The notes beneath the pieces are model-generated. The model made no database searches, had not been told where the DNA came from, and worked only from the letters and a program-made list of their open reading frames with translations. Of a stretch of DNA of 64,000 nt, positions 3,883 through 60,105 are shown one piece after another (position 1 is the first letter of the stretch; every line of letters starts with the position of its first letter). The position numbers were made by a program, and so were the translations under genes. Source of the stretch: Carcharhinus amblyrhynchos (Eukaryota); the NCBI GenBank assembly GCA_965287045.1, contig OZ336870.1:154194001-154258000 (forward strand), in the 5' to 3' direction.

Positions 3883-3972
3883 CCTTGTGTCGTCTTGGAG
3901 GAAAGTCACCTATGGTTTGAGTATCAGTTCGTTCTAAAACAGGTTTAGCTCTTAATATTTTAGGACTTTGAC
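3883..3972 (-). CDS. GAB1: GAB1 alternative 90-nt exon (long isoform)
   Basis: GQSPKILRAKPVLERTDTQTIGDFPPRRHK, resembling the 30-aa insert of the long human isoform. Acceptor ttttctcatcaattag, donor G|gtaggt, phase 1->1. Confidence 0.92.
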
Positions 3973-5576
3973 CTAATTGATGAGAAAAGAAGACTCTTCG
4001 GTTATAATTTTTCTTTGTAAAATGGTTGTGCAATATTGGGCTCTTAGCGTGGCCAGTTAGCTGTGCTGAAATTGCAGGTGCAAGTGATAACCAGCCGAGC
4101 AAAAGCAATCTGGCCAATCAGCCAGTCTTCACCATGCTCATGCTTAGAGATTCAAAACATTATTTATTTATTTTTTAAGTAGAGGAATAAGTAGCTATAT
4201 CATGCACACATCCGAAGCAGTGTAGTCAAAGCAGGCAATTATTGAAAAGTAAACGCAGAATTCTTCCCAGGGTACAGATGAACTTCCCAGTGTCCCACAA
4301 ACAGCTGAACGCTTCTGTCACAACCACCAGCCTAAACCTCTTTCAAACAGCTCCACAAGATTCGCCCACTCTCAGATGCCTTTTTCAAGTAGCCATTTTC
4401 GTAGATTTTCTGAACATTAAACATCTGCAGAATCGTGTGCACAGGAAGAAAAGCAGTGGAGTCTAATCTGATCCTGCTCTTAGCCGACACATACACATGT
4501 TACAGCAGGACTAGCTAGATAGCAATCAGTTTATAGGAAGAGGTGACTAATTTTTGCCCATCCCTGATTGCAATGCAGTGAAGTCAGTTGCAAAGACAAT
4601 GTCATCAGACAGATTCATTTTTATCTTAAAATCTTATGGAGTTTTGTTCTCTGCTTGTGCCGAGGAATGGAATATCTTTCATTTCAAACAGCCACCGTCA
4701 TCAGCCAGGCATGCATGGTGAGATGCTGAGTAAACATACTCGGCTGTATCTGACCAACATGCCTGGCTCTAACTCTCAAAGCTCGTCCTTTCGCCACATG
4801 TCAATGATCACCAACTTGGTGCTCAACTAGGGTGGGACAGCATTTTCAATTCAGGAATGCAGCATTTAAAAAAAAATCTATACTGCGAGCAAATCTTAAA
4901 CGTTATCAGCCATCTGCAATTCCATCAGTCATTTCCAGTAAACAGACTGACTCCTGTTTGGTTAGTTTAGCAATCAAACTCGTGGAGACATCAAGACTTC
5001 TGAAAGCCACATCCTCAATTTCAGCCATTACCTCAATCTTTCAAATTACACGGGAAACAAACCACATTTAACACTGGCATTTAGACTAGAATTAAACTAC
5101 TTGCTCACAAAATCTCCACTGCTTGCTTTAGCAAGGGGTGTGAACAGTTGGCTCCCATAAGCAGTAATGACTTCAAGCCCAAGGATGGCGGGAGACTAAT
5201 TTGTTTTCCCCTCAAGTTGTACAAAGAAGAGCTAGTTTCATTGTGGACTGCTGTGTAATGTACTATGTGAAATGGAAACTTCACTCTGATGATAGGGAAG
5301 GGCAAATAGACTCGCCCTCCTTGAACTTTGCAGCCTGAGTGTCCCAAGTGCTTAGTGGAGTTAACCAGCAAACAAGCTAGCTCTACATGACAGGGAGGAC
5401 CTGGATTAGGTTGCCAGTTAGCTGTGTTAACTGATATCAATATGGAGGAATGCGTTACAATCAGCCATGATGCCTCTTGGTCGGGGATGGAGGTAGAAAC
5501 CAGCAAACACTTCTGCACTCAAATGTCATCAGGGACACTTGGTGGAATTGCAAATGTAACTATCAGTTCTGGGTAG

Positions 5577-18123: not shown

Positions 18124-18300
18124 GGAGCGGGGACACTGCACAGCAAATTGGAACAAAAAACTGCTTTACTTTTCCCCTCATTATTCTAGGAGCAGCGAGA
18201 CCAACTGTAACAGTTTTAATACAATCACAGAAGTGATCAGATATCTCAACACTGCCTAGCAATTGAACCCGGAGCCTCCGTGGTCTTTATGACTCAGTGG
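17960..18300 (-). mobile_element. LF-SINE-like element containing an expanded (TG)n
   Basis: gaccacggaggctccgggttcaatt..gtgttgagatatctgatc..gaggggaaaa..cccgctcctg..(tg)n..tcaagtgaggacagga. Resembles recalled LF-SINE consensus; not verified by search. Confidence 0.55.
18056..18119. repeat. (CA)32 microsatellite
   Basis: Perfect AC repeat. Confidence 0.99.
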
Positions 18301-18355
18301 TTAAACGAGAGAGATCAGAGAAAGTATGGTTACTTACTCAAGCCACTGAACTGAC

Positions 18356-18963
18356 CTTTTCTTAGCCAATGGCCTTCCACAGTGCCAATGGTATTGCTTC
18401 GAAGAGTTTTGCCTGATGTAGGAATGCTGTAATTAGTATCAGCCTCTGAGGACGAGCGTGGTACACAATAGGTGTCCACGGGGGAACGGTCATGAGATAG
18501 AGAAGGTTTTGGTGGGCGAGGAGGAGGAACATCTGGTATAGGTTCCAACTTTGAGCAACTTTGACTTAGGGTCCCCTCTCCGGAAGGTCGTGGAATCTGA
18601 TAAGTACCTCCTGGCGTGGGAGGAATGTCATAACAGACAGACATCTGTCTCATTTGATTTTCTATACCAGATATCCGTGAGGGTGTATTAAATACATATA
18701 AATCTCCTTCAGTGTCAGCAACCGATGGAGGGCAAGTTCCAGCAATTATGTCTTGGGAAAAACTTCTTGGCAGGTTGTAAAGACTTGAATCTGTAGACGT
18801 AGATGTAGCTCTGGGTGGGGGAGAATCATAAAAACTTTGTTGTGAAAAGAAGCCATTCACAGCCTGTTTAGTTGCTGGAGGTGCTGGGGGTTTGTGAGAA
18901 GGTACATTGTCATTGCAGTCAGTTTCTGACGAGGTGGACTTGGTCAAAGAGTCTGCATGCAAC
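18356..18963 (-). CDS. GAB1: GAB1 exon 4
   Basis: [24 protein letters not shown]...YDSPP...YNLPRS...[13 protein letters not shown]...[11 protein letters not shown]...RSNTI. Acceptor tttttcag, donor G|gtcagt, 608 nt, phase 2->1. Confidence 0.97.
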
Positions 18964-20204
18964 CTGAAAAACAAAACAGAGGACTCTCAATAACTATTTT
19001 CCACATTAGCATCATTAACAAAATGTAGAAAAGTGACAAGTGCAAATGGAGTCAGCAACTGGCTGCGTTCGGTGAAAACTGATTTGATGGAGACAATCTA
19101 GCAACCCCAACTTTTCTTTTAGGCAATCTGTGGATTAGAACACTTAGTTGTACTTTTACATTTATTACAAAAAGGGAATGACACAGAAAGCATGCCATCA
19201 GTGTGGCCTGCTGATCTCACTTGCTTCTAATTTAGTAATGAAAGAAAGGGTAGGGCTGCTATAAGTAACATATTAAATAAATCACTTGAATCAGCAGTCA
19301 AGAGAAAGTAAATCCACTGGAATGCAAACATGCAGACAAGAAATTTTACATTTCAACTACAGATCAAATTACATAGCTTTATTTAACACACAATTTTCAC
19401 CCCCATGGAAACCTATTGAGACTCTGCCCTCTGTAAACCTTCTTATCCAAAGCTCTGCATATCTTACATGGCATCAAGTCCCACTCACCCATTTCCTTGG
19501 TCTTCACCAAATATATTGAATTCTACTTCCCCATGCCACAAATTTAAAATTCTCGTCTAAGTTATTAAAAAAAACATATTACCTATACAGATTACACACT
19601 TCTCAATAAACGTGAATAAAACTTTAACAAAGCTAGTATCTGAACAACTTCCATATATGACTGAGCGCGCTGTTGGAGAGGTTTTGTGTTACAGTGGGTA
19701 CCATTCCTGCCTCTGAACCAGAAGCTTTTGATTCAAGTCCAACTCCAAGACTTGATGGCCGAGCTGTGTCCCTTATACATCTAAACAGGTTGGGTATCCA
19801 TTTGTAAATCTTTCCCAAAAACGCAAATGACAGATAGTAAAAATGGGAGATATTTCTGGTCAGCCAAGTGATGGAAAGAAAACTGAAGCCTCTACCATCA
19901 CTATTCATGGCTCTGGTCAAAACTTGCATGTCAAGTGCATAGGGCTGGTTCGCTCATGGCCTGTGTACATCATATTGGTGCAAACAGCTTGGGATTTGAT
20001 CAATGTTCCAGCTAGGATGGATTTGAGACCTGCCTCTTTGTCCTATCTGTGGCGGAGGTTGCCTTTGAACAGAAAGAAAAAGAGCTGCTTCAGGACACAG
20101 TGAAACAGAATAAAGTGAAGACCAATACTGGAAATTCTACTGGTGCAATCAACTGCACCTCCACCATATTCAGATTCCATACATTTCTATACAATTTGGC
20201 CATA

Positions 20205-21000
20205 TGAACATATAAAATTGGAGAAGTAGACCATTCGGTCTCTCAAGCCTACACTGCCATTTGATAAAATCAAGGCTGATCTGTTTGTGTTTCTAGTCCT
20301 GCATTTCCATGTACCTCAGATAACCTTTGATTTTCTTGTCCAACAAGAATCTAACTACCTCTGCCTTAAAAAAAAGTTAATGACCACAAATTCTGAGGCA
20401 GAGGGTTCCTAAATCACACAAACCTCAGAAAAACATATCCTCATCTCTATCCTAACCAGGCCAACTCCTATTTTTAAAATATTGCCTCCCAGTTCTGGAC
20501 TCACCTACAAGCAGAAACATCCTTTTCCATGTCCACCTGGTCAATAACGTTCAGGATACTGCAATCAGATCCCCCTCACTCTTCTAGACTCCAGTGGACA
20601 CAAACCAGTCTGTCTAGCCTTTCCTCATAAGGCTAACTGCTCATTCCAGGTATCAATCTAGCGAACTTCTGTTCAAGTACCTCTAATGCATTTACATTCT
20701 CCCTTTAATAAGGACACCAAAACTGAACACAATATTCGAGATGCAATCTCACCAATACTCTATAACTGAAGCAACATCCTTACTTTCATGTTCAATTCAT
20801 CTTGTAATAAAAGACAGTGCTTTATCAGTCTTAATAATTACTTGCGGTTCTTGGATACAAATTTTTTTGAGACTCATGCACTGGAACACCGTGAATCCTC
20901 TACAGCCATTTCCATCTAGGTTTTCTTATTCTTCCTGCTAAAGTGAGCAACTTCACATTTATGCATCATCTGCCAGGGTTTTGTCCATTTGATAAGATCG
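20205..21000 (-). mobile_element. Degraded CR1 3' fragment
   Basis: Reverse-strand CR1 3' UTR and WTKPWQM..KCEVAHF motif in ORF 20916-21122. Confidence 0.8.
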
Positions 21001-21034
21001 TGAAAATATACATCAATTTTGTGTGATAGTACAG

Positions 21035-21343
21035 AATTTGAGTATTGCTGTTTTGTCAAATCTTTTTGTCTTACTTTCATCAGGATAGTTTTCATGAATA
21101 CCAATGTAAGGGGAAGCAACAAATTAATACTGTATGAGAAGAGTGTGTTAATTGGTTGTCAAGTGATGCATGCTTCACGGTAACTTCCCCACAGAGTCCA
21201 CTTCTCAACTAATCAGCACTCCCCTCTCATACAATATTACCTTGTTGCTTCCCCTTACATCGATGTTGTTGCAAAAGGTTCTGATGAGTGCAAGACAAAA
21301 AGCTTCGACAGAATAGTATTTTTTTCAAGCAATACATCAAATT
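21035..21343. mobile_element. ~310-bp palindromic element with hammerhead-like motifs in both arms
   Basis: Arms are reverse complements (atgtaaggggaagcaacaa / ttgttgcttccccttacat). Related partial copies at ~28015-28120 and from ~36190. Confidence 0.75.
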
Positions 21344-22289
21344 TGCTTCAATCAAAGTTATGCGCCATTGGGAAATGCGGCAACAATTTAAAGGATGGAA
21401 ACTAGGGTCTAGTCATGTTTTAATAATGGAGATTGTGCAATTGTGACAGTTTAATCATAATTCTAGGAGCAAAGTAACTCTTTATAGTTTCCAAACACAA
21501 TGAAGTTCCAAACAAGTTTTTGATCACCGATAAATTTGGTTTTACAGCTGGGCTATAGACAGAAGCATCACTGCTAATGTCATTTTAGGCTTTGATACAT
21601 GGAGGACATCTGCTCCTTAAATTGTCTTTGAAGGAATATGACAGATATACTAAATCTAAATCCAACCTGGATAATCCTTTCAAAAAGTACTATTGCCAGC
21701 GTGCAATTCTCCCTCTTTTTCGCACATTAATTCTCATGCTTTTGTCTTTATTAAGTATGTCTCTTAGAAATAAATTAGAGAATCTTATCCCATTATGAAA
21801 ATCATGTACATTATTCACATCAAATTAAATGAATAGCTAGTCTTTCGCAAGGCAGGTTAACGAGTTCAACTGGTCCTTTAAGTGTTCTTTGTTGGACACA
21901 TTCATGGTCAAAGACCATGATATGGTGCACCAAAGAATTAAGGACACAGTTGAAGTTATTTGCTTGATTGGATTTTCTGACATGGAGCGTGAGGAAAAGG
22001 TAGAAGAACAAAAATTGTACTTCTACAATTCGCCATGACATTATGAGAGAACATGTCAGACTGCACAGCAGCATTTTCATGGAAAAACAAAAAAATGGAA
22101 AATCACACAGAGGGCCAGTCAGAATCTGGCGAGATAACAGACCCTCCTTCACCTGAAGCACTAAATTTAATTCATTCTCCCCAAAGCTGACTGGTCTGCA
22201 GTGTCTTCCCAGCCTTTTCTGTTTTTGATTCAGCATCTGCACTATTTTAGTTTTACTGACATTCTCAAGGAGTTTGATCCAAACAAACA

Positions 22290-22510
22290 GAATCATAAAA
22301 TTGTTATGGCACAGAAGGAGGCCACTTGTCCCATCATGTCTGCACTGCCACTCATGTGGCTCTCCGTCTGAGCAACTCACCTAGTTCCATTCCTCCACCT
22401 TCTCCCTGTGAACACTCACCCTTTTCAGATAGTAGTCTAATTCCCTTTTGAATGTTTGAATTAAACCTGCCTCCACCGTGCTCTCAGGTAGTGCATTCCA
22501 GGCCTGCTTA
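22290..22510 (-). mobile_element. CR1 3' end fragment
   Basis: agaatcataaaattgttatggcacagaaggaggcc...caggtagtgcattccag resembles a reverse CR1 3' end. Confidence 0.6.
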
Positions 22511-22559
22511 TCTCAGCTTTATCTCAGAACATTTTTGCTGCCTTTAAGAATTATTTTAA

Positions 22560-22878
22560 ATCACAGAAATCCTACCGTGCAGGAGGAGGCCATTTGGCCT
22601 GTCAGGTCAGCACTGACAACAGTCCCACCTAGATCCTATCCCCATAACCCAACATATTTACCCCGCTAGTCTCTCTAACCTACGCATCCCAGGAGACCAA
22701 GGGGCAATTTAGCATGGCCAATGCATCTTACCAGCACATCTTTCAGACTGTGGGAAGAAACCCACACAGACACGGGAAGAACATGCAAAGTCCACACAGA
22801 CCATGACCCAAGGAATCGAACCCAGGCCCCTGGAGCTGTGAGGCAGCAGTGCTAACTACTGTACCAACGTGCCGCCCA
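22560..22878 (-). mobile_element. HE1-like tRNA SINE
   Basis: A/B boxes and a body shared with the other copies. Confidence 0.87.
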
Positions 22879-22959
22879 TAAATCTGTGTCTTATTCCTGA
22901 TCTTTTCACGAATGGGAACAATTTCTCCACCGGAGTATGGCTGGTACAGAGTGTAATTA

Positions 22960-23250
22960 CTGCGGGTTTGGACACTGGTTTAAGGTGTTTGACAAAAGAA
23001 CCAAAGGTGCTACGAGGAAAAACATTTTCATGTAACACATGGTTGGGATAACATGAAATGCATTAGCTAAGAGTGTGTCATGGGCAGAGTCAATTGTGGC
23101 TTTCAAATGGGAATTAGATTATGATCTGAAAAACTGTCCAGGGTTATTGGGAAAGGGCAGAGAAAGATGACTAGCTGAGTTGCTCTTGCAGTGTGCTGGC
23201 ACAAACACAACAGCCTGATCAGCTTCCTTTTGTGCTATAGCCATTCTATA
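22960..23250 (+). mobile_element. CR1 3' end fragment
   Basis: Degenerate RKNFF..RVV..WN region and CR1-type 3' UTR. Confidence 0.6.
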
Positions 23251-23714
23251 ATATGCAAATATAACTCAACTTCTGGTAACTGCAATAACAACCTGTAATG
23301 GCAATGTGCAGGCAAGTCCACAAAAAAGTGACAAATATTGGTCCACTTCTTTTAAAAAGTTTTGGGTTTCCATGAGTAATTTGTATCTCAATTCATCCAC
23401 ACACTAACATCTTGCTCATTCATTATTTTTACACGTTGAGTGATTCAGTGATCATCTCTCATTGAAACAAAATATCTCATACAACTAGATTTATCATATT
23501 TTTCCATAGTTCAAATAATTAAGTATGTGATCTTAAAAAAAAAGCCCCAAATCAAAAGTAACCTAGATGGGAAGCCTTATGTTACTTATCTTCAGGCAGT
23601 TTTTTAGTTACCTTGAAAATTTTGAAATATAACGTCTGCAAAGGTGTACAGATTTGTTTGTTCCTTTTGTAAAATTAACTGCTGCAACGTTAAACATCGG
23701 TATGACCCTGCAGA

Positions 23715-23863
23715 TTCAAAAGGGTCCTTTAAGAGACTTTTGGATATGTACATGGGACTTAGTAAGATAGAGGGTTATAGGTAAACCTAGTAGGCAGGGA
23801 CACATTCGATGCAACTTGTGGGCCGAAGGGCCTGTTTGTGCTGCAGTTTTTCTATGTTCTATG
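23715..23863 (+). mobile_element. Short CR1-type 3' end
   Basis: gggccgaagggcctgtttgtgctg...ttctatgttctatg tail. Confidence 0.65.
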
Positions 23864-25289
23864 ACATGCATATTACTAATGCCAACTCCAAAAACTGGAT
23901 TTATGGATCCACAAGCATTAGCAATCTGCACATTGGAGCCTAGGCAGTGACTGTTGGACACCCACTCATAACCCGGTCCATAGTTACGAGTGGTTCATCG
24001 TTTCCACGTTGAAAATTTCATTCTTGCTCTCTCCGGCCAATTAACAAGCTCATCAAGAGCTTAACAGGCTGTTAATTAGAGGCAAACTGGTTCCCACCTC
24101 CCTTCCACTCCCCCACCTCACCTTCGCTTTAAAAACTGGAGTGCATCAAGCAGGCATTACCAAGCAGGAATGCCTTCCAGGGTTGCCATTTTCAAATTGT
24201 TCTCCACCCTGCCAGCAACTGAAAATACAGCTTGTGAACTGTTACAAGGATCGGCAATGTCCAAGATGTTGTTGTTCCAAGGTGGTGAGATAATTGGTTT
24301 CCTTCAATCATTACCCCACATCCACCTAGACTACCATCAAGTAAGCACTAAATTAGGATACCTTGTTCAATTTCCATCTTCTTAACTAATTCTCCTCCTT
24401 TTGTTTGACTTCTGGGATTCTGTAAGGTCTTACTTCTATTGTCAGTTCAGCTGGTGCCACTAGCACACATCAGATTGCCCTTGTCCTCCTGGGCTGAGAT
24501 GGAAATGCAAAGTCTAGTCCACATCCTGTGCCTGTCCATACTGATCTTCAGTCAGTTCACCAGAGAGGTAAACTCTTCTTTGTATTCTCTGTATCTTGGT
24601 GTCAGGTTCCCTGGTAGTTTCTCCACCACTGATAGGCCCCTCTCTTCTCAATAGCTTAAAGATGTTTGTGTGGTAGATCTGTTCAGGATGCCTTCTCTGA
24701 AAGCATCTGATCTTTATAGTGCACCATCTGTAGCATCATAAGGTTCTTGCCACAAAGCAAAGACCTTGCTTTCCTGTTACTACACAGGAATAACCAACTT
24801 GATCCACTCCCTCACTTTCACTATGTGTTCAACAATATTTTTGGAGAGTTCCTCTTTAGCACTGTCAAGGAATCTGCATGACTCTTGTCCACAGAACAGG
24901 TCACCAGGGAATACTTCATTAAAGACTTAAGCACCCCACTAATGGCAAGCATAGTATAAGGCACTGGGTTAACCCAATTTTCCAAGTTCTTTTTGACTAC
25001 CTTTCCTTTGACATATACTTGAGGGTTTCACTGAACTTTCCACAGGGCTATTGTTCTGAGGACCAGCATGGAGGTCCTTAGCTCTTAATACAGATGAGGT
25101 ACAAAAGTCTTTCATCAGTTTGGACACAAAGGGACTAGCTGGCTTGTTAAGATTTTCTTTGGGTTCCCTATCTATAGAACACCTACAATTCACCCAATAA
25201 GGTTTTAGAGGTTGTGTTCCTTAGTGGAATTGCCTTAGGACGTAGTCAATGTCTAACAAAATATATTGATGTCCTTGAGACCACTAAAG

Positions 25290-26440
25290 GTCAGCACACT
25301 TGGTCCATAACGATTGTTTCAAAGAGCAACTTAATTGTTGACTTTGACGGAGTTGACTATACCATCTTACTCCAATGCAAGTTCACTATCGTCCAGCTGA
25401 GGGGGACTGCACTCATTGGTCTCAACTCTTAACTACCTAACTGCAGCCAGAGTGTAATCTGCAATGGGTTTTCTCTTTGCTCTGTTACACCCGTTATGCT
25501 CCAAAGATGTATACTTGGACCCCTTCTACCTCGCATCTACATACTGCCCCTGGCAATATCATGGAGAAAAACAACATTAGTTTTCACAGGTATGTTGATG
25601 ACAACCAGCTCTACCTCACCACCGCCTCTCTTGTCTTCTCCACTGTTGTTAAATTGCAGACTGCTTATCCACCTTCCAGGACTGGATCAGCAGAAAATTC
25701 CTCCAATTAAATATTGGGAAGATTGTAACTATTCGGTGGCAACTTCATTCCCAAGCTACCAAATTCCATCCCACTCTCTGGCAACTGTTTGAGACTGATT
25801 AGTCTGTTCACAACCTGTTTGACCTTGAGATGACCTTCTGATCACAAACCTGCTCCATCACTAGTACTATTTCTACCTCATCTGTCTCAACTCATCTGTT
25901 CGTCTGGACCTGAGGATTCAAATACACTCATCAGCCTCCCACTTTCTACGCAATGTAATGTTGAGATAAGCTAAAACTCTGCTGCCCATGTTCTTGCTTG
26001 CACCAAGTCCTGTTCATCCATCACCCCTGTTCTCACTGATCTAAACTGGCTCCCTATTAAACATGCTTCCATTTTCAAAACTTTCTTCCTGGTTTTCAAA
26101 TCTGTCCCTTACCTAGCCCCACCCTTTTTCTGTAAGCTCCTCCACCATAACCCTCATGATATCTGTACTTTTACAATTCTAGGCTCTTGAGTATTCCCCG
26201 TTTTAATTCCTCCATGAATGATTGCTGTGCCTTTAGCTTCCCAAGCCCTAAACTCCACAATTTCCACCCTCAACCTCGCTATTTCTCCTTTTTCTTATGA
26301 GACGCTCCTTAGAATCTAGCCCTTTGCCCAGGCTATTGGCCATCTGCCCTCATGTCACCTTATATGGCTGAGTGTCAGATTTTATTTCACTTCTGTAAAG
26401 CGCATTGGAATCATTTCATTGTTAGACATAGTGTATAAAA
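25290..26440 (+). mobile_element. L2-type LINE RT fragment and 3' end
   Basis: DFDGVDYTILL, LRGTAL, LGPLL..IYILPL and SFHRYVDDNQLYL (YADDTQLY-like) spread across frameshifts. Confidence 0.85.
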
Positions 26441-26454
26441 AACAAGTTCTTAGG

Positions 26455-26563
26455 TTAGATGCAATGACCCAACCGGGCGCCGGAGTGTGGTGGCTTGGGG
26501 AATTTCACAGTAGCTTCATTGCAGTGTTAATGTAAGCCTTACTTGTGACTAATAAATAAACTT
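26455..26563 (+). mobile_element. 3' part of HE1-like SINE
   Basis: ggcgccggagtgtgg...cttcattgcagtgttaatgtaagccttacttgtgactaataaataaac. Confidence 0.8.
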
Positions 26564-27451
26564 AATTATTGTTATTATTGAGTAAGGAACCAATACAGGG
26601 CCTAGATCCACATTTCAGTTCTTCAACACCTAACTTGTTTCAGTATCTACCTCTTTTCAGCCCTCCCCTTTTATGCATGACTGGCTTTCCAATCCAAGTA
26701 CAATTATTTTTGAAGACTAGGCTCTTAAAGAGATTGTACTCTTCTTCTGGGAATATCATCATCATCTACTTTCAGCCTCAATCAATTGGCTTCAATGTTC
26801 AATTGAATATAGTACACAGACACTGGATATTTCACATACATGTAATATGGATACATACATTATATGCATATATTTAGAATGTACTCTGATTAAGTCAACC
26901 ATTTAAAAAAAGGTATAGCTGACATTTTTTCCATCTAACATAACATTCAAAGATAATTCACTATGCCTCATCTTGGAACATTCCTTTAATTGCACTAGAG
27001 TATTTAGACAGGTTTAAATATCATTGGATTCAGCTTTATTCAATATGTTTACCACCAACTTATGAAAGTTAGAATCAATTCATGTAGCGATCCATTTCAA
27101 CAAATTAGATTAGTGGATCATATAAAACATTTCTTCAAGGGTCTACATTGGTTAATAATTGATTGACAAGTGCGTGCCATGCAACCTTTACCATCCTGGA
27201 CTCAGGATTCACCAAGCACGAGTTCCACGCCATGCCATTTCCCAGAAACTCTGACGTAATTTCACAAAAGCCACTGTAAAGTTAGTAGGAAGCAGATATA
27301 TCAAGGTTAGAATTTCAAGCAGTGGCAAGAGTGTAGTTTGCAGAGTGGAAAGCCAAACCATTTCTGGCACACAGATCAAGTCTGAAATGCTGAGAACTGC
27401 ATACGGGTCCATGTTTTCACTATAGACCCATTTGCAATTCATTAAACTCAC

Positions 27452-27538
27452 TGATTGTGAATCGGATGCTTTTTGCTTTCAAAATCTTCCAGCAGAAGAT
27501 ACTCGTCCCCCTCTTCTGTGGTAAATGATGATGCTCGG
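27452..27538 (-). CDS. GAB1: GAB1 cassette exon between exons 3 and 4 (probable striated-muscle-specific exon)
   Basis: Acceptor catcttccatttcctctgtgaaatag, donor CA|gtgagt, 87 nt, symmetric phase 2->2, open in the GAB1 frame: (S)RASSFTTEEGDEYLLLEDFESKKHPIHN(Q). Confidence 0.8.
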
Positions 27539-28629
27539 CTATTTCACAGAGGAAATGGAAGATGACAACATAAAAATGGCGTGGCTAAATCTAATTTCAG
27601 TGCAGAATGTAATAAAGATCTTAAACAAAAAGAAGCAGACATTTATATGAAAGTGCCATCTTCCTCTGAAATGCAGCTGATGACAAAGCAGCCAATTACA
27701 GAAATACAATGAATTTTGCGCATATCCTGTCAAATTAGAATTGGTTAAAAAAAACACAAACAGAATGAAATATATAAAATTTGACCAAGGCACAGGCAAA
27801 TAAGTGAATAAACTTGAAACATTAAATAAACAACAGCTAATTTCCAACGTACTTAAGTAACTCTTAAATATTTGTTTTGCAACAGCAGATTACTTTGTTA
27901 TTGTTCCTTTAAGGGCCAGTGCCATAGATAAAACTAAGCTATAAAAATATCTCAAGAATGAAAAAATACACAATTACTGGAAGCCAATTTATTTTAGTCA
28001 TTTGGTGGTACGTTGCTTAAGTATTGCTGAAAAGAAATACTATTCTTCTCATCAGGACAGTAAAAGAACAATTCACACTACATGAGAAGAGCACTGATTC
28101 ATTGGCAAGTAGACTCTGAGCATTCTTTACATAAAAATGGAGAATATTATGATACTGATTGTGTATTCTCATTGTTCTACACTTTTCACAGGATATGTAC
28201 TAGAAGAAGTGCACAGTTACTAGATAATTTTATACACCCATGACCATTGTGATCAAATGAGCTGGATCAATTTACATTCTTCAATATTATTTATTGGTCT
28301 ACAGTTATAGAACAGTCATGTTGCAATGAGGAATACAAATTTTTGGCAAAGGCTACAATGTAAATACATGGAAATCTATATGTATGTCAACATACGTGAA
28401 TATATCTAGACATCTGATTGCCACTCTTGAAGTCCGTTGGATTGTCTATGTAGTTTCAGGAATAGTTCATTCAATATTTTTGTTTCCCCCTGCCACCACC
28501 AACCAAATGCAAATTTTGCCACTCCAGGTGACTGCCTTGCTTGCTTAGTGGTTGCATCAGTCTGATTAGATAATGGATGTTTGCAATCACATACGTTTTG
28601 TTCACATATTCACTTACAGAATGGTTTAC

Positions 28630-30250
28630 TTACAGGCCTTTTGGCAAGTCTGTCGTATCTGTGTCAGCTTTCAGCAAGAGCAAACTAGCTGAACCCATTC
28701 TTTCCCCATAGCCTTAAATGTTCTCTTTGAGGTGCTTTTCCTTTGAGACCAAATGGTATCCCTCACCATCCTCTCAGGTTTTCGCTGTGCAAGTGTTTTT
28801 CCTTATGTTATCGTTGATTCTTTAGACAACTACCTTCACGTCTTCTGGCACTTGACTGTCCCATCAACAGGAACAATTACTGTCTGTCTGCTCTATCCAG
28901 GCTTCTCATGTTTTTGAACACTTCTATTATATCTTCTCTCAACTTTCTCTTCTCGTAAAAGAACAACCCCAACTCGCACAATCTATCCACATAACTCAAG
29001 TCCCTCATTTCCAGAGCCATTCTCGAAAAACCCGAAAAGGCTGCAGTACCTGGAACTGGACAAAATACTCCGGTTGAAGCCAAACCGATGTTTGATTTTA
29101 AAGGTTCATCAAAAATTCCTTACTCTAGAACTCTGTCTCTATTTGAAAAGCCCAGCATCCTTTAAACATTTTTAACCACGTTCTCAACCTCACCTGTCAC
29201 CTTCAATGATTTGGGCGTACATATGCTGGTTCTCTCTTTTCCGGCATCCTATTTAGAATTGAATTTTTTATTTTATGTTACCTCTCCTAATTCTTTCTAC
29301 AAAAAAGCACCACTTCACACTTCTCTGCATTAATTTCACCTGCCACGTTATGCCGATTCCAGCCAACTGCTTCTTCAAGTCGATCACTGTCCTCATCAGT
29401 TTCCACTAATTGTCATATGTAACTTTTGAAATTGAGCCCTGCGCACCCTTAGAGTCTAAGTCATTAAAATATATCAAGAAAAGCAGTGGCCTTAGTACCA
29501 ACTCCTGGGGAACCGCACCATATATACGTGCCTCCAGTTTGACAAATAACTATTAACCATTAAACCTGTTTCCTGTTACTCAGCCAACTTTGAATCCATG
29601 CTGCCATGTCCCTTTTATTCCATGTGTTTCAGTTTTTCTGAGAAATCTATCATGTGGCACTTCATAAAACATCTAGCCAAAGTCCACGTACATTACATCA
29701 ACCAACCTTCATCAACCATCTGATATCTTAGCAAAACAATTCAATCAAATTAGTTAAACTCAATTTGCTTTTGACTATTCCATGCTGGTTTTCTTAAATT
29801 AATCCACACTTGTCCAAGTAATTGTTCATTTTATTCCAAAGATCATTATCATCCCTAAAAGCTTTCCCATCACCGTAGTTAAACTGATTGGCTTTAGTTT
29901 CCAGTCAGAGGTCCAACATTTCCAATTCTCCAGTCCTCTGACACCATCTCTGTATCTAAAGAGTATTGGAAGATTAAGGCTAGTGCATCTGCAATTTCCA
30001 ACCATAATTCCCTCTGCATCCTCGATGCATCTGATCCGGTCCAGGTGACTTACTAATTGTTACAGCCTTATCCATCTTTCGACAATCCTGTTATCTCCTC
30101 TTTCACTGATTTTGGCATCATCTTCTTTGATAGAGAGAGTTGCACTCATTTAGTGCCTCAGCCATATTCCTCTGCCTCCATGCATAGATTCCCATTTTGG
30201 TCCTTAAACCGCCTCATCCCTTCTCTTTACCATCTTTTCACCATTTATGT
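28630..30250 (-). mobile_element. Degraded CR1 ORF2 (RT) fragment
   Basis: LSYVDRLCELGLF..EKRKLREDIIEVFK, plus upstream GVPQ..VLGP-like and GPDQMH.R-like motifs on the minus strand. Confidence 0.85.
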
Positions 30251-30459
30251 GCTTACAGAATCAAAGTTTAACATTTAAGAGTTAGAAATTTAACAGCTCA
30301 TAAAACACAAATATGAATAGAGAAGCTTATTCAAAGAAATTCTGCAGTTTATCATCACAGGATCAAACTGTCTGTTATGACAGTTGCTTTGGCTATATGA
30401 AATGCTTCTAGAACATTTGGAAAATGATGATTTGAGCTTCCTTATAAGGTAATGGTGAG

Positions 30460-30875
30460 CTGTCTTCATGAACCGCTGCAGTCCATGTTTTGTAGGAATA
30501 CTCATGGTGCGTTTAAGGAAGGGAAACCCAGGATTTTGATCCCAGTGACAATGAAGTAACAGCGATATAATTCAAAATCAGGATGGTGTTTGACTTGGAG
30601 TGGAACTTGCACCTGGTGGTGTTTCCATACATCTGTTGCCCTTATCCTTTTAGATGGTATAAGGTTACAAGTTTGGAAAGTTCTGATGAAGGCATCTTGA
30701 CGAGTTGCTGCTATGTACTTGTACATAGCACATGCTGCTGCCACTGTGCGTCACTGGTGGAGGCAGTGAATGTTTAAGCTGGTGGATGGGGGGTGCCAAT
30801 CAAGTAGGCTCCCTTGTCCTACATGTTGTTGAGCTTCTTGAGTATCATTGGAGCTGCATTCATCCAGGCAATAGG
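30460..30875 (-). mobile_element. LINE 3' fragment, family unassigned
   Basis: HHQVQVPLQVKHHPD region. A similar sequence lies at ~14075-14420. Confidence 0.55.
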
Positions 30876-31049
30876 ACCAGAACCAATGGTTAAAGAGACA
30901 ATATCAATTAATAGGCAGTTGCAGACAGGGGATGGGTATAAACTTTAGATTCAATATCAGTGTTCTCTTTTCTTTGTCATCACGTTGTTTTGAATCTTCT
31001 CGCTTCTATAACAGATGCATTCCAATGCAGCACTTTGCACTAGCTGCTG

Positions 31050-31660
31050 TTCATATTAGGAACATGGAAACAGAAACTAGAAGCAGGATTAGGCCATTAG
31101 GCCCTTTGAGCCTGCTCCGCTATTCGGCACGATCATGGCTGATCCTCAAATTCAATATTCCGATCCTCCACCATATTCCTTTAGCCCCAAGAGCAATATC
31201 TAATATTTTCTTGAAATCAGACAACATTTTTGCCTCAACTAATTTCTGTAGTAGTGAATTCCGCATATTCATCACCCTGGCTGAAGAAATTTCTCCTCAC
31301 CTCAGTTCCAAAAGGTTTACCCTTATCCTCAAACCATGACCCCTAGTTCGGGATTCCCCCACCGTCGGGGGATTCTTTCTGAATCCACAATGTCTAACTC
31401 TGTTATAACTTTATAAGTTTTAATGAGATTCCCGCTCACTCTTCTAAACTCCAGTTAATATAATCCTAACCTATACGATAGACCTGCCATCCCAGGAATC
31501 AGCCTGGTAAACCTTCACTGCACTCTCTCTATAGCAAGAGCATCCTTCCTCAGATAAGGACACCAAAGCTACACACAATATTCCAGGTGTGGCCTCACCA
31601 ACGCCCTATAGAATTGTAGTAAAATATCCCTATTCCTTTACTCAAATCCTCTTGCTATAA
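31050..31660 (-). mobile_element. CR1 3' fragment
   Basis: Colinear with the young CR1 copies (ggccatt..gccc..gagcctgctccgc; LVRPHLEYCV on the minus strand). Confidence 0.88.
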
Positions 31661-32869
31661 TAAGAGGATTGCAATGTTTTATGAATAATATTGTAAAAGG
31701 CAAAAACAGGTAGTGTTGTTCTACAAAATTGAGGTATATGTTGTTTTGAAGTTACAAAGCTTGTAACAGCAGTGAGGTAAACACTGAGGGGGATACAGAT
31801 GTCAATTACGACCTTTCAAACACCAAATCTAGATTCTCAGTTTCTGAAGGAATCCATTGTATTTCAACTGAAAAATAATAAGACTGTGACACTGATGCAT
31901 GAAAGAGAAATTAGGAAAACAAAGTGCAAAAGTGGCATATTAAATGTTAATGGTATGGTAAAATAGAAAAGGTGCTGGTAAATGTTGAGAAAATCTATAA
32001 ATACTCAATTTACAGGTCCTAATGCTGTGTTTCAACTACTTTATTTTGTACTAATTGTTCTGTCAAATGTTTATCTCGCATAACATGGTAAGTAAATTCA
32101 ATATAAATGCATTTCTAAAACATATTTTGAAACATTATTTCTAAGCATTAAAGAATAAAAGCTGCAAAACCATATAGAATATGGTTGCCATGACAGTTCT
32201 GAAGAATCTAGTGCAGGTTCAATTCTCCTGCACTTCCATCAGCTCTGCCCTTGCCGTGTTCTACTGGCCCAGTGCCATCATGCAGTACCAATGTTAAGAT
32301 GCTTGTTCTTAGATTAAAACCCTTCCATGACATCATTCAATCATGCCAAAATAATAGAACCATACATGCACCAGCTATTCTTCAGCGCAGATTTTTGCTT
32401 GTACCCTGCTTTTTCTGCAACTTCATTAAAGACCAATCTGTGACCAGGCTCCTGGCAACTTAGTCTCACTCAACTCTGAGTCAGAGATTATAGTGTTAGC
32501 CGATCTCCAAAACTGAAATACAGCATTTTTAACATATAAAAAAGCTGACACTTCATAGAATCACTGGAGACTCTGAGTGAGGACACGTGTCCAGTCTTTC
32601 TCTTTGTTGGTTATCCCCCTCTCAAGTTCTGCAGTATCTTTTCCTTTCTGCATACTTAGTTCCTCTTTACACTTCATATTTCATGCAACATCTGCTGATT
32701 CACTCCACTTTTGCCCATGTGACAGTAATCTTCTTCTGCATTCATTTTAAGTGGTTACCACACTTGGCTACATGCCCCAAGCTTTTGGCAAAGGATGGGG
32801 TATTTTGCTGCAGGCTTCATCATCCTTAAATCTGCCTCAGTTAACACACAGTTTATTAAGTGATCATTC

Positions 32870-34010
32870 ATTACAATTGTTCGACAGTTCCACGTCTTCA
32901 TGCTCACACATGCCCCGAATGATGGCAAATCTTCTGACCCATTCCCAGTCACTGGTGGAGTTAAACAGGGCTATGTGCTGGCACCAATCCTCTTCAGCAC
33001 ATTTTTCATTGCCATGCTGTGATTAGATATTGCATGGATGGAAGTTGCTGAACCCGAGACAGCTCCAGGCAAAGAGCAAGGTCTCCAAGGGTGTCCTTTG
33101 TGATCTCCTGTTTGCTGATGACTGTGCACTACTGCCAGTTCAGGGCTGGTCATGCAATGTAATCTGGACTTGTTCTCCAATACATGCCACAGCTTTGGCC
33201 TGATAATTAGCACAAAGAAAATTGAAATAAAGCACTAGCTTGTTCCAGGAAAGTCCTATCTTGCGATAAAGATTTCAGTCCATGACCAGATCGATCAGCA
33301 GTGGACATGTTCATTTATCTCAGCTGTTTATATTGATGACAAGACACATGCAATAATTTCCCAAAGCATCTGTAGCCTTTGGGAGACTTTGATCATCAGT
33401 TTGGGAATGGAGGAGTAAAGTCTGCCTACTATAGAGCAGTAGTCGTGCTTACTCACTCTTCGCATGCCAGGCTTGGACTGTGAACCAGCCAAAAAGCTCA
33501 ACTACTTTCACTTCACCTGCCTTTGGAAACTTCTGCAGATTAGATGTCAGGTGTTCACCCAAGCTGGCATGCCAAGCATCAATGCCATATTGAGACAGTC
33601 ACAACTGTAGCTGGCCGTTCATGTAGCCAGAATGTCTGACACTTCTATGGAAAGCTCGAGTCTGGAGTATGCTCTCGTGGCGGCCAAAGGAAGCACTACA
33701 AGGCTTTGCTTTGGAGTTTTGATGTTGATTTGGGTCCTTGGAGGAACTTATCCAGGATCTCTGCATCTGGCATAATCAGACAAAAAAAAAGTGCCTCCTT
33801 TGAAAGCAAGTGCATATCGGAGGTGAAGAGAAAATGCAACGAGGGGAAATTCTGAACCAGCAACTCATCCGAAGTTCAATCATCTATCGATCCTACATGC
33901 AGCAGAACCTTCTGGCAGAGATCAACATGAGCAGTCACATACATTCCCTCTGGAACATCACCAAACATCTCAGATGATGAACAAGGTCATCTTCATAAGG
34001 CAAACAACAC
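32870..34010 (+). mobile_element. RTE-clade (BovB/RTE-like) LINE RT fragment
   Basis: NDGKSSDPFPVTGGVKQGYVLAPILFSTFFIAML, LLFADDCAL, FGLIISTKK, KASVAFGRL, with frameshifts. Confidence 0.85.
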
Positions 34011-34449
34011 AAAGAAGTAGTTTTAAGTGTTCCAGGAATTTTCTTTTATTTGTAGCAATTATTGCAGCTTTGAAAGAGAGCTGGGTAACTGGTTGCACGT
34101 CCCACTTCTAATCTCTTTTGTTTATTGACATTTGGAAATCTGGCTGGGATAGATCTTTTCATTCCTGAGGAGATATGCATTCCAATGAAACATAGTGGTA
34201 TTGTTGTGACAAAATTTCATCTGGAGACTATTTTCACTAATAAGTTAGGGTTAGGAATCTGTGCAATTTGGATGAAAGAATTGTTTTGTTCTGTATTGCT
34301 GGACACACAACTAGAATGAAGTACTTTTAAAAAACTTCAGTTTCAATGGCATAATGATTCTAATAAGTTAATTTAAAGAAAATGTATACAGGTTTAAAGT
34401 TTGATGTAGAACAGGAGATTAAAGACTGAATTAAGGAAATCAGGTAATC

Positions 34450-34474
34450 AGAGAGAGAGAGAGAGAGAGAGAGA
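34450..34474. repeat. (GA)n microsatellite
   Basis: Perfect AG repeat. Confidence 0.95.
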
Positions 34475-35064
34475 TTTTGGAAAAGAGACAAAGCTTGAGA
34501 GTAACAGCATCAAAGATGCAGAAACTGAACAGAGGAAAGGTAAGGACAGTTTCACCTCCCAGTTTTCCTCCTCTTTGACCAACCAAACATCATTCTCTTA
34601 TTTTCAACTATATCATACTGGTCACAGTTTATGTAAGTTAGTCAGGCAACAAACTAAATCCATCAATAAAGTAGGGCACAACCATAAAAGTCAACTTTCT
34701 GCATTTTTTCAGCATCTCTAGATAATAATATTTGATAGCTCCTATAACATTGCAAGCAATAAGCATTAGAGACCCAGTCCTGATATCAGTGGCCAAAATG
34801 CAACAGAGGAACTTGCCTTATGCCTAAATCAATTGAAAACTCAACTCCAAACCACAAAAAACAAGTAGCCTTAACAGAATTTTTTAAAATTACTTCAAGA
34901 GTATCAATGACCACTGACAAAAAGTACAACTTCTATTCACATTTCATATGAATAATATTCCAGTTATACAAATTATGAAGTTGTGTCAGGAATTCAGATT
35001 AAATAGTGTGGCCCTAATGGAGTTTACAAATGATACTGCTACTCTTCCCAAGTACTCATCTTAC

Positions 35065-35278
35065 CTAGTGGGTTCAGGCTTTTTGCTTTCACAGTTGGCT
35101 AGCCACAGATAATCCTGTGGATCTTCCTGGCTGGATAACGATGCCAGACGTCGCACACTGATGGGCTGATAGGGGGGAGGTAGCGAGCCCATGGAAACTG
35201 CTGGCCGAACAGAAGGCTGTACAGAAAGAGGTACCTCAGTACCAGCATTACCAGAGGGATTTGATGGTTTAACAGCAT
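35065..35278 (-). CDS. GAB1: GAB1 exon 3
   Basis: Manual translation DAVKPSNPSGNAGTEVPLSVQPSVRPAVSMGSLPPPYQPISVRRLASLSSQEDPQDYLWLANCESKKPEPTR, matching GAB1 LPPPYQ and QEDPQDYL..NC.SKKPEP. Acceptor attatag, donor AG|gtaaga, 214 nt, phase 1->2. Not in the ORF track. Confidence 0.95.
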
Positions 35279-36184
35279 CTATAATGGTACAAAAAAAAAA
35301 GTGTTATCAATAAATGAAATAAAAAGACCGTAACAACAATGTTCAACTTTTAATGGAACAGACTGAGAACAGGGCAGGGATTGGATCAATATTTGAAAAT
35401 TGAAAGAACTGATCAATCTACAATATATTTGTATGTAAATTCAGATTGTGGCAGCGAGCTCTGAAGTATTCCAAAATGCTACCCATATGAAAAATTAAAC
35501 TGGATGCACTAGAACTGTTAATTATACAGCACTGTATTTCAGTGCAATGGCAAACCGCAGAGCAATACTGCTGTGTTTCACAAAGTTTTAATCAACATCT
35601 TCTCTGGAGCTCAAAATGCGTAAAAGATTGCAGAATAAATTTTTGTTACAGATGTCAAATACTTCCTTATGCGAATTTTGTGGCTGGAAAAATGTGGACA
35701 TTGTTGGAAAAGAGAAATTTTCTAACTTTTTAAAAAAATTCCTACTTCTCTAATCATTTTTAGTAACCCAGCAGGATCCTGGAATTGTACTCTCAAACTA
35801 GAATGAGATACTGGACACCATTGTGGGGAAGTTCTTTTGGAAGGCAAGATAATATTTTGAATGTTAACAAAGCTGATGCAATAGTGAAGCTATTCAGTCT
35901 CTTAAATTTTCCCTGCACTTCCCCCACACAGCCCATCAAAAATACATTTGTTGAACATCTTGACAACAAATTTCCATAAGCAGCAAAACCAGCATTGAAC
36001 CAAAATATATATTTGCGAGATTGGCTTGAACAAACAGAATCTGAGTATGTTAACAGATTAGTGACTTAGAAATTGTCTCTCGCCTTGGTGCCACATTTAG
36101 TTTCTAATGAGATATTTCTAACTCTAGATAATAGATGGAAATTGCATTTTAAGACATCACTAAAATGAACGTTGGTCATTTTGT

Positions 36185-39799: not shown

Positions 39800-41270
39800 T
39801 ATAATTTCTCGGATTGTCTTCTGCCCTTCTTAAACAGAGAAATAACGTTACTTACTCTACAATCCTCTGGTACCTCACCCCGTGGCTAAAGGGGATACAA
39901 AGATTTTGGCCAATGCGTCAGTAAATTCTTCCTGCGCCTCTTAGTATTCTGGGATAGACCCTATCTAGCATTTGCCTACCTTAGTGTTCTCAAAACCTCC
40001 AATACCACCTTCCTTTTTATCTCAACATGCTCTAGAATGTTAACATCCTCCTTTCCATATTCACTATCCACCAAATCCTTCTCCTTTGTGAATACTGATG
40101 CCAAGTATACGTTAAGGACCTCACCCACCTCATCTGCTTCCAAACACAAATTCCCTCCACTGTTGTTGAATGGACCCATTCTTTCCTTAGCTATTCTCTT
40201 CCTCTTTATATATGGATAAAAAGACTTGGGATTCTCCTTAATCCTGCCTGCCAAGAACATTTCATGGCCCCTTTTAGCCTTTCAAAGCTCTTTCCTGCCA
40301 TCTTTGTATTCCTCAAGAGTCTTGTCCATTTTCAATTTCCTGAAATTTATGTATGCCTCCTTCTTTTTCACTAAGCTCACAATCTTTCTTGTCATCCAGG
40401 GTTCCCGAATCTTGCCATCTTTATCTTTCATTTTTACAGGGACATACTTGTCCTGAATTGTTAACAAGTGACTTTTAAAAGCCTCCCACATATCAGATGT
40501 GGATTTACCCTCAAACAGCTGTCCCCAGTCTACATTCCCTAGCTCCTGCCTAATACTATCATAGATAGCCTTCCCACAGTCAGTACTTTCATTCTGGGAC
40601 TACTTCTACCCTTTTTTATAAGTATCTTGAATCTGGTAGAATTGGATCACTGTTCAAGAAATGGTCCCCCACTGAGACAATCACCTGTCTGGGCTCTTTT
40701 CTCAGAACCAGGTCTAAGATAGCCTCTTCCCGAGGTGGAATAACTACACAATGCCTCAAAAAGCACTCTTGGAAACACTGAAGAAACTCAGCCCCATCCA
40801 AACCCCTGACGCTAAAGGAATCCCAGTCCATATTGGGGAATTTAAAATCACCCATCACAACAACCCTGCTGTTTTCACATCTTCCCATAATCTGTTGGCA
40901 TATCAGTTCCTCCACTTCGCGCTGGCTGTTAGGAGGTCTTGAGTACAACCCCAACAGTGTGATTGCACTGATCCTGTTCCTGAGTTCTACCCATATGGCC
41001 TCACTGCATGATTGCACGAACGTATCCTCCCTCTGTATAACTGTGACATTCTCCCTAATCAGTAAAGCAACACCCCCACCTCTTCTGCCACCCTATCTCG
41101 CCTGAAGCATCTAAATCCTGGAATGCTAAACTACCAGTCCTGCCCTTCTTTCATCCAAGTCTCCATAATTACCACAACATCTTTCTTTCATGTAGTAATC
41201 TAAGCTTTTAAGTTCATCTGCCTAACCTGTCATACTCCTTGCATTAAAGCAAACACATGTCAGACCATCT
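39800..41270 (-). mobile_element. CR1 ORF2 N-terminal (AP endonuclease) fragment
   Basis: EAIWVELRN..LLGLYSRPPN..VVVMGDFKFPNMDW..PREEAILDLVL, EPWMTRKI, IKENPKSFYPYIK..LNVYLASVFT. Confidence 0.92.
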
Positions 41271-57800: not shown

Positions 57801-58950
57801 GTCTGGATGACCCTTCACCAACTCCAACTCCATTTCTGCCAATTCCAGCATGACGTCTGATGAAGGGTTATCCAGACTCGAAACTTTGGCTTTGTTCTCT
57901 CTCCTCAGGTGCGATCAGATCTGCTGAGATTTTCCAGCATTTTCTGTTACATAAGAACATAAGAAATAGGAGCAGGAGTAGGCCATCTAGCCCTTCGAGC
58001 CTGCCCCGCCATTCAATAAGATCATGGCGGATCTGTCGTGGCTCAGTTCCACATTCCCGCCCTCTCCCCATAACCCTTAATCCCCTCGCTTACCAAAAAC
58101 CCATCAACCCGCGTCTTAAAAATATTTAGCGAGGCAGCCTCCACCACTTCAACGGGCAGAGAATTCCAGAGATTCACCACCCTTTGAGTGAAGAAGTTCC
58201 TCCTCAACTCCGTTCTAAACCGCCCCCCCTTTATCCTGAGGCTGTGCCCTCTAGTCCTACTGTCCTTTCTGAGCGGGAAGAGCCTCTCCACCTCTATCCT
58301 GTCCATCCCATTCATCATCTTATACGTCTCAATGAGATCTCCCCCCATTCTTCTAAACTCTAACGAGTACAAGCCTAGTTTATTCAGCCTCTCCTCATAG
58401 TTCAACCCCCTCAACTCCAGAATCAGCCTAGTAAACCTCCTCTGCACTCCCTCCAAGGCCAAAATATCCTTGCGTAAGTACGGCGACCAAAACTGCACAC
58501 AAAGCTGCGGCCTCACCAATGCCCTATACAGCTGCAGCAAGACCTCCCTACTTTTATATTCAATCCTCCTTGCTATGAAGGCCAGCATCCCATTGGCCTT
58601 CCTGACCACCTGCTGCACCTGCAGGCTGGGTTTTTGCAACTCATGCACAAGGACCCCGAGGTCCCTCTGCACCGTCGCATGCTGCAGTTTTTCGCTGCGT
58701 AAGTAATAGTCCTTCCTACCATTATTCCTACCAAAGTGGACAACCTCACATTTGCCAACATTAAATTCCATTTGCCAGTTCCTGGCCCATTCGCCCAGCC
58801 TATCTAGATCCTTCTGCAGACTCTCCACACCCTCCGCACAATTTGCCATTCCACCAATCTTGGTGTCATCAGCAAATTTCGACACCATACACTCGGTTCC
58901 CTCCTCCAGATCTTGTTTCAGTTTCCAGGATCCGCAAATTTTGCTTTTAT
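57801..58950. mobile_element. Penelope-derived foldback element split by a CR1 insertion
   Basis: Inverted repeat 57801-57820/57858-57877 and CTGATGA..GAAAC. The tail ...ttttccagcattttctgtt resumes after the CR1 as tgtttcagtttccagga..ttttgcttttat. Confidence 0.7.
57949..58912 (-). mobile_element. Young 5'-truncated CR1 LINE, same subfamily as 9294-9891
   Basis: ORF 58043-58888 from SKFADDTK through WQMEFNVGKC to FFTQRVVNLWNSLP, TTCTTATG tail. Nearly identical by eye to the 9.3-kb copy. Confidence 0.96.
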
Positions 58951-59017
58951 CTTAATGGAATGGAACAGCATCTAGACTGTGGAAATTGTAGTGTGAGACA
59001 AAAGACAACAACTTGGT

Positions 59018-59810: not shown

Positions 59811-60105
59811 CCTCATCAGTAGGATTGAACCCACAGATATCACAGATGCATCGAACCCACTTATTCATTTCTTCTTCAGTGTCTGCTACCAGGTAGAAGA
59901 CACGGTCAATTGTTCGGATATCAAAAATGTAACTGTTCTCAAGATCCTTCTTATTAAAAGTCAGCCCAGCATCCACTTGCTCACAAAGATTCAAGTCAAT
60001 GACACGGATAGGTTTCTTTGCATGATCATTTTTGTAGTATTCCAACACATCCGGATCTCCAGTCAGACGGCCACTTCGAAGTACAAACCAGCGCTTCTTC
60101 CATGC
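59811..60105 (-). CDS. GAB1: GAB1 exon 2 (most of the PH domain)
   Basis: Encodes [53 protein letters not shown]...[17 protein letters not shown]. Acceptor ttttcag|GCA, donor G|gtaagt, 295 nt, phase 0->1. Confidence 0.98.

Follow-up and report, generated by a model that had tools for sequence, protein, structure and literature searches.

Among the systems described so far, the closest to the exon considered here is an extra exon of mammalian Gab1, of 81 nt and 27 residues, which lies between exons 3 and 4, is used in heart and embryonic skeletal muscle, is conserved in mammals, and has no homology to known domains (PMC5115770). It belongs to the muscle isoform, with an exon of about 27 residues between exons 3 and 4, that an earlier note on this DNA had named. 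Neuregulin-1 elicits phosphorylation of the long isoform, and AKT activation falls when this isoform is knocked down; since over-expression of the short isoform increases AKT activity to about the same degree, no function specific to the exon has been established (PMC5115770). The insert (27 residues, about 3 kDa) is accompanied by a gel shift from 100 to 120 kDa, left unexplained in that paper, of which the acidity of the insert is a possible cause.

A second line of work concerns Tyr183 of human Gab1, which is conserved to chimaera, has been reported to be phosphorylated, belongs to a helix that is formed in part, and lacks a characterised partner (PMC13435814). The tyrosine sites of Gab1 occur in pairs, and Tyr162 has been taken as the only neighbour of Tyr183; the Tyr183 helix forms with or without phosphate, SH2 ligands being usually extended (PMC13435814).

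The window analysed here is a stretch of 64,000 nt from the shark Carcharhinus amblyrhynchos (contig OZ336870.1), in which GAB1 lies on the minus strand, its coding exons showing 91–100% identity to RefSeq proteins of Mustelus asterias (tblastn). The features needed for the comparison are the following:

59811 to 60105, minus strand: GAB1 exon 2, most of the PH domain, which fixes the identity of the gene
35065 to 35278, minus strand: GAB1 exon 3, 214 nt, phase 1-2
35065 to 35148, minus strand: 3' part of exon 3, which aligns in register with the cassette and was probably the segment duplicated; it carries the Tyr183-equivalent motif, with its Tyr codon at 35111-35109
27539 to 27564, minus strand: polypyrimidine tract and TAG acceptor of the cassette, used in contig joints
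27452 to 27538, minus strand: GAB1 cassette exon (3a), 87 nt, phase 2-2, net gain of 29 residues
27501 to 27499, minus strand: conserved Tyr codon of the cassette
27446 to 27451, minus strand: cassette donor GTGAGT after CA, used in contig joints
18356 to 18963, minus strand: GAB1 exon 4, 608 nt

The earlier note had proposed a hidden cassette of 87 nt, phase 2-2 and open in the GAB1 frame, with a pyrimidine-rich AG acceptor and a GTGAGT donor after CA, placed between exons 3 and 4 in a 16-kb intron and adding 29 residues. All of this structure is borne out on the minus strand (27538-27452). From the end of exon 3 (35065) to the start of exon 4 (18963), the host intron measures 16,101 nt; the cassette consists of one base that closes the codon left split by exon 3, 28 complete codons, and two remaining bases. 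Both splice sites are present and used in spliced contigs, and the pyrimidine content at −26 to −4 of the cassette is 70%, with 61–74% for exons 2–4. The exon is hidden only from the lists of open reading frames, which miss it because its stop-to-stop frame has only 31 codons, but not from annotation, where the exact peptide is present in three RefSeq isoforms of M. asterias (P0003-P0005).

Splicing of the cassette is documented by contigs from four of the 20 public runs listed (from four studies and three coded organisms), placed on positions 18300-35350; the runs were selected for holding the exon, carry no tissue labels, and are guessed, not recorded, to be RNA. The joints expected on both sides of the exon occur, with canonical ends, in all four of these unlabelled runs: one joins exon 3 to the cassette (35065 to 27538, skipping 7,526 nt) and the other joins the cassette to exon 4 (27452 to 18963, skipping 8,488 nt). 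The direct joint between exons 3 and 4, in which the cassette is skipped, is found in three of the four. The cassette is thus a real exon of GAB1, which is both included and skipped. Its bases are identical to the window in every run; the contigs probably come from relatives or other individuals, because their exon 4 differs from the window at 2–5 bases. A single contig traverses exon 3, the cassette and exon 4, which rules out mutually exclusive splicing of exon 3 and the cassette, and both motifs are present together in 125 of 247 proteins.

The exon is widespread. A cassette-bearing isoform was found in 20 of the 23 cartilaginous fish species among the proteins retrieved, and the remaining three show skip isoforms only among those proteins, probably owing to sampling. 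The cassette is also carried by coelacanth, sturgeon, paddlefish, bowfin, teleosts, turtles, alligator, birds, squamates, platypus and orca. The shark peptide is identical to those of orca and platypus at 19 of 29 residues, and to the human immunogen peptide printed in PMC5115770 at 18 of 27 (ungapped, counted by eye). Within a core of 16 residues, the match to shark is complete in chimaera, 15/16 in turtle, chicken, skink, platypus and orca, 14/16 in coelacanth, and 11/16 in damselfish; exon 4, by comparison, agrees at 127 of 202 positions in the orca/platypus comparison and at 115–129 of 202 over the bony vertebrates compared, one partial sturgeon model without exon 4 being left out. Aligned in this way, the cassette is the orthologue of the mammalian striated-muscle exon, as the earlier note had supposed, and the conservation of the core from chimaera to mammals indicates a site under strong selection. 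Because chimaera, sharks, rays, ray-finned fishes, coelacanth and amniotes all carry it, the exon must, by this distribution, be at least as old as jawed vertebrates; the origin at their base proposed earlier therefore holds as a minimum age.

A set of 171 proteins, in which both anchors were required (10 of 181 were dropped for missing them), contains 55 with an insert, all of which have Y-[LF]-L-L; the proteins were found with exon-2 or exon-3 queries, not with the cassette. In 37 distinct cassette copies, Y, L+2, L+3, E+4 and S+8 are invariant; Y, L+2 and L+3 belonged to the search pattern for this set, whereas the check on the 55 proteins was based on length. The first third of the insert is replaced in teleosts. 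Since the insert of coelacanth also adds 29 residues, this is probably the older length, and the 27 residues of mammals would be a later shortening. In Scyliorhinus torazame (P0016, P0018, P0019), Lys replaces the otherwise invariant Glu directly before the cassette Tyr.

The matches listed in the homologue searches (120 of 418, 95 of 95, and 120 of 1,557) contained only jawed-vertebrate Gab1, and none from lamprey, hagfish, amphibian, lungfish or zebrafish, which is not evidence of absence. A 31-residue query against 1.84 billion representatives gave one match, a sturgeon Gab1. Pfam holds no family for the cassette or exon 3, none of the 20 matches of the PDB sequence search covers the cassette region, and the ESM Atlas returned nothing for residues 165-225 and only Gab/PH clusters for the whole protein.

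What the earlier note missed, while its position, phase, length and orthology stood, is the likely origin of the exon from the motif in exon 3. An ungapped alignment pairs the cassette with the final 84 nt of exon 3, 10 of 22 residues being identical; this is the best match of the cassette in the whole skip isoform, and was reached by 21 of 10,000 shuffles. In DNA, the end of exon 3 in this register is the best non-self ungapped match of the cassette (47/87) among 127,828 window positions (background mean 22.3, SD 4.1), the next best full-length match being 44/87; without a 13-nt identical run, the register scores 30/57, a value also reached at one unrelated position and exceeding the rest by a single match. 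With a profile of the 37 cassette copies, the exon-3 motif comes out on top in every one of 116 skip isoforms (median 9.75 bits, while reversed controls stay at or below 0.3 bits), although these isoforms are kin and amount to one test, not 116, and the Cys copies of teleosts raise the score. The two motifs are matched by hhalign with a probability of 96.6%. Of the ten residues that the motifs share, seven are encoded by identical codons (4.1 expected, P 0.049), and the first codon position is the same in 19 of 24 codons. In both exons the terminal donor is in phase 2, and its place in the register differs by no more than one codon. Divergence between the copies is seen at +4 to +6, with A/I/V-N-C in exon 3 and E-D/E-F/C in the cassette, and the cassette is without the Pro at −3 that starts the Tyr183 helix. 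Taken together, these comparisons make it very probable that the cassette arose by partial tandem duplication, from the 3' end of exon 3 with its Tyr183 motif.

At +6, the cassette has Cys in bowfin and teleosts, like exon 3, and Phe in sharks, sturgeon, paddlefish, coelacanth and amniotes (P0065, P0075-P0119 and P0190-P0244 versus P0187, P0246 and P0247). A one-base reversion or gene conversion could explain this Cys.

With the cassette included, Gab1 holds two Y-L-x-L motifs at a distance of 25–29 residues. Over 43 distinct pairs, the spacing from tyrosine to tyrosine is 28 residues in 23, 29 in 16, 26 in three, and 25 in one, with 28 in sharks, coelacanth and most amniotes, 29 in ray-finned fishes, and 25–26 in squamates. 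Position −2 is Q in exon 3 and D, E, Q or K in the cassette, +3 is L in both, and the conservation common to the two copies extends to +6 to +9 (C/F-E/Q-S-K), past the usual SH2 footprint. The SH2 domains of SHP2 prefer a hydrophobic residue at −2, and those of PLC-gamma pY-L-x-L behind acidic residues; acidic residues ahead of a tyrosine also suit a kinase site. A site of the SHP2 or p85 type was rejected, neither copy having Val at −2 or YxxM. The distance between the two tyrosines fits the workable range, which is of at least 10 residues, with 31 residues between the tyrosines of the SHP2 sites of Gab1 (PMC13681993).

The intron downstream of the cassette contains putative regulatory words:

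27068 to 27310, minus strand: cluster of five CTAAY words (QKI-type), a candidate splicing enhancer
27286 to 27281, minus strand: ACTAAY within the CTAAY cluster
27114 to 27104, minus strand: bipartite site within the CTAAY cluster
27178 to 27235, minus strand: RBFOX-type words TGCATG (27183-27178) and GCATG (27235-27231), not enriched alone (P 0.21 and 0.10)

The five CTAAY words in the 400 nt downstream of the cassette compare with 0.63 expected (P 4.9e-4 uncorrected; about 0.01 after correction for 20 motif-by-region tests) and with 0–1 after exons 2–4; five words are reached in one of 146 gene bins, and one other region, near 44.8 kb, also has five. ACTAAY occurs twice in the same 400 nt, once within 200 nt, where 0.16 would be expected, and is absent from the 300 nt upstream of the cassette and from the sequence after exons 2, 3 and 4. 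No enrichment near the cassette was found for RBFOX, MBNL, CELF, RBM20, RBM24, RBPMS or PTB words, and Rfam gave nothing in the host intron. In mouse heart, ACUAAY downstream of an exon marks exons activated by QKI (PMC10202634). The QKI-related supplement files of PMC7782589 that were searched have no GAB1 row, and none of the four gab1 events among the matches listed from the accessible part of a zebrafish heart splicing table (PMC9534849) fits the cassette by the sizes of its flanking exons.

These observations can be arranged into one proposal, which as a whole is slightly favoured: an orthologous cassette, born as a tandem copy before the split of sharks and bony vertebrates, whose inclusion is predicted to be driven in muscle, and which would give Gab1 a second docking motif of the Tyr183 type. 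Of the tandem copy, only a 3' piece could have been retained, with the donor in phase 2 taken over from exon 3 and an acceptor newly acquired in the same phase, because a copy of the whole exon (214 nt, phase 1-2) would shift the frame. QKI, perhaps together with RBFOX, would bind downstream of the cassette and promote its inclusion; the motifs make this choice of regulator about an even call, and enrichment of the inclusion in shark muscle is rather probable. Both tyrosines, at a distance of 28 residues in shark, would then be phosphorylated by a receptor kinase or a kinase of the Src family, and together they would bind the partner of the Tyr183 site more firmly. This partner would most likely be an SH2 protein with a preference for pY-L-x-L preceded by acidic residues, PLC-gamma being the first candidate. 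This functional step, with both tyrosines phosphorylated and a tighter hold on the partner, is tentative, and slightly less probable than its opposite. The divergence of the two copies at +4 to +6 and in the Pro at −3 may also mean that they have different partners. In its boldest and decidedly unlikely form, the proposal would make this duplication, more than 400 million years old, a splice-controlled switch, with the tyrosine pair as a bivalent ligand for one tandem-SH2 or dimeric partner in muscle; if true, it would tie the muscle isoform to the orphan Tyr183 motif and explain the role in neuregulin-1/ErbB4 signalling.

Several other explanations have to be weighed against this proposal, starting with the existence of the exon. 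Short open segments between AG and GT are frequent in an intron of 16 kb, and the cassette might have been one of them; the exact splice joints in all four runs, together with the exact peptide in annotated shark proteins, exclude a chance segment, which the conservation from chimaera to mammals also refutes, so that its probability is negligible. As regards the origin, the likeness to exon 3 might reflect convergence on a simple acidic Y-L-x-L site by an exon born from intron sequence, given that the match is short (22 residues), that both regions are rich in S, E and L, and that, apart from the 13-nt run, the DNA match scores close to the highest background values. However, the register runs without gaps across 24 codons, both shared serines use the same codon class, several unlike residues differ by one base, and a donor of the same phase lies at nearly the same place, all of which argue for the partial tandem copy and leave convergence quite improbable. 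As regards the function, the insert might be an acidic spacer that alters the shape or mobility of the disordered tail without any partner of its own, an idea favoured by its variable length (25–29 residues between the tyrosines), by the replaced first third in teleosts, and by the mouse work, which revealed no exon-specific function (PMC5115770). A spacer fits poorly with a core conserved at 15/16 next to about 60% in the exon 4 tail, and with residues Y, L+2, L+3, E+4 and S+8 invariant in 37 copies (Y, L+2 and L+3 being part of the search pattern), and it is very unlikely.

A different reading keeps the same exon and origin, but takes the motif as a short hydrophobic helix that, independently of phosphate, binds a kinase (PAK4, PAR1) or folds back on the PH domain of Gab1 itself, with the cassette as a second copy or a competing decoy. 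The conservation of C/F-E/Q-S-K at +6 to +9 in both copies, beyond the SH2 footprint, fits such a helix, whereas the acidic residues before the tyrosine suit a kinase site. This reading also agrees with a helix that forms in both phosphorylation states, unlike the usually extended SH2 ligands (PMC13435814), with the PAK4-binding region at residues 116-234 of Gab1, which spans the Tyr183 motif (review PMC2747914), and with the binding of several Gab1 tail peptides to the PH domain on arrays (PMC3039663); yet Tyr183 is reported to be phosphorylated, and the interaction of PAK4 with Gab1 is described as phosphorylation-dependent (PMC2747914). We consider it unlikely, although deserving of serious attention. 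Also unlikely is that the cassette is broadly alternatively spliced in shark tissues, muscle restriction being a later mammalian trait. The contig depths of inclusion and skipping are similar in three unlabelled runs (29.6/29.9, 13.5/27.8 and 16.4/13.6), which is compatible with broad use, and the exon appears in annotated isoforms of most species; but the runs, all chosen for holding the exon, are silent on tissue range, the QKI-type words are clustered downstream, and ancient duplicated exons are mostly tissue-specific, often in muscle (PMC9741552).

Other features of the locus are as follows. Among the annotated GAB1 isoforms, P0002 differs from P0004 and P0005 by a swapped segment after residues 589/617, encoded by exons beyond the left end of the window. 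The segment holds either the third YxxM site of Gab1 or a different acidic, Tyr-containing segment, the latter being the majority form in the vertebrate alignment, and the swap may amount to another conserved splice switch, one that acts on a p85 site. Another alternative GAB1 exon of about 90 nt (window 3884-3973, minus strand) is present in P0005 and not in P0004; a zebrafish exon of 84 nt, matched to it by its size and the sizes of its flanking exons, shows roughly half inclusion in embryonic heart, with no change in rbfox mutants (PMC9534849). Intron 2 contains two LINE remnants on the minus strand: part of a reverse transcriptase at 58046-58951 (RVT_1, with an E of 1.7e-4 that misses the Pfam cut-off) and part of an endonuclease at 40619-41092 (Exo_endo_phos_2, E 7e-7). 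Intronic repeats at about 22300-23990, 26497-26563 and 30800-31950 attract very high contig depths in each of the four runs, with a maximum near 15,000 per bin, probably as abundant SINE or LINE ends from other loci. Finally, the intron between the cassette and exon 4 holds an imperfect palindrome of 270 nt (21048-21316, 72% self-complementary), possibly a small inverted-repeat element.

Compared with the known systems, the shark cassette shares with the exon of Yasui 2016 the gene, the intron, the preserved frame, the production of both forms, and a core identical at 15/16 (orca), while it has 87 nt and 29 residues instead of 81 nt and 27. Yasui 2016 reports conservation in mammals only, does not mention the likeness to exon 3, and bases the tissue pattern and the neuregulin response on rodent data. 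RefSeq isoforms of shark and chimaera GAB1 already contain the exon (XP_078067046.1, M. asterias X2, with a cassette peptide identical to that of the window, and XP_042195278.1, Callorhinchus milii X2), but these are automatic models without a link to the muscle isoform or to exon 3. In the literature searched, mostly without subscription journals and splicing databases, no paper was found on the non-mammalian exon or its likeness to Tyr183, and no report that the tyrosine of the cassette is phosphorylated.

The Tyr183 epitope of PMC13435814 and the cassette have in common the acidic residues, Y-L-x-L and C/F-E/Q-S-K in the same register, which makes the cassette its likely paralogue; they differ in E-D-F of the cassette versus A/I-N-C of exon 3, and in the Pro at −3, absent from the cassette. 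The words "isoform", "splic" and "exon" do not occur in the text of PMC13435814.

Tandem duplicated exon substitutions (PMC8373072 and PMC9741552) are, like the cassette, ancient homologous neighbouring exons, often muscle-specific; however, they swap their copies, whereas the GAB1 copy is partial and added, with both motifs in one protein. The cassette was not assigned to this class, as its copies coexist (in one contig and in 125 of 247 proteins), and GAB1 was not found in the supplement of PMC8373072 or the main text of PMC9741552. The paired phosphotyrosine sites of Gab1 consist of two tyrosines about 30 residues apart in a disordered tail, as here (25–29), but the putative pair formed with the cassette is without Val at −2, YxxM or YxxP. 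Nor was the pair filed among the bis-phosphotyrosine ligands of tandem SH2 domains, the context of the SHP2 and p85 readers being absent.

In summary, the exon has already been published in mammals and annotated in sharks, and its likely identity as a second Tyr183 motif is a useful addition, which joins two open points: the exon of Yasui 2016, without a known motif, and the Tyr183 of Dietrich 2026, without a known partner.
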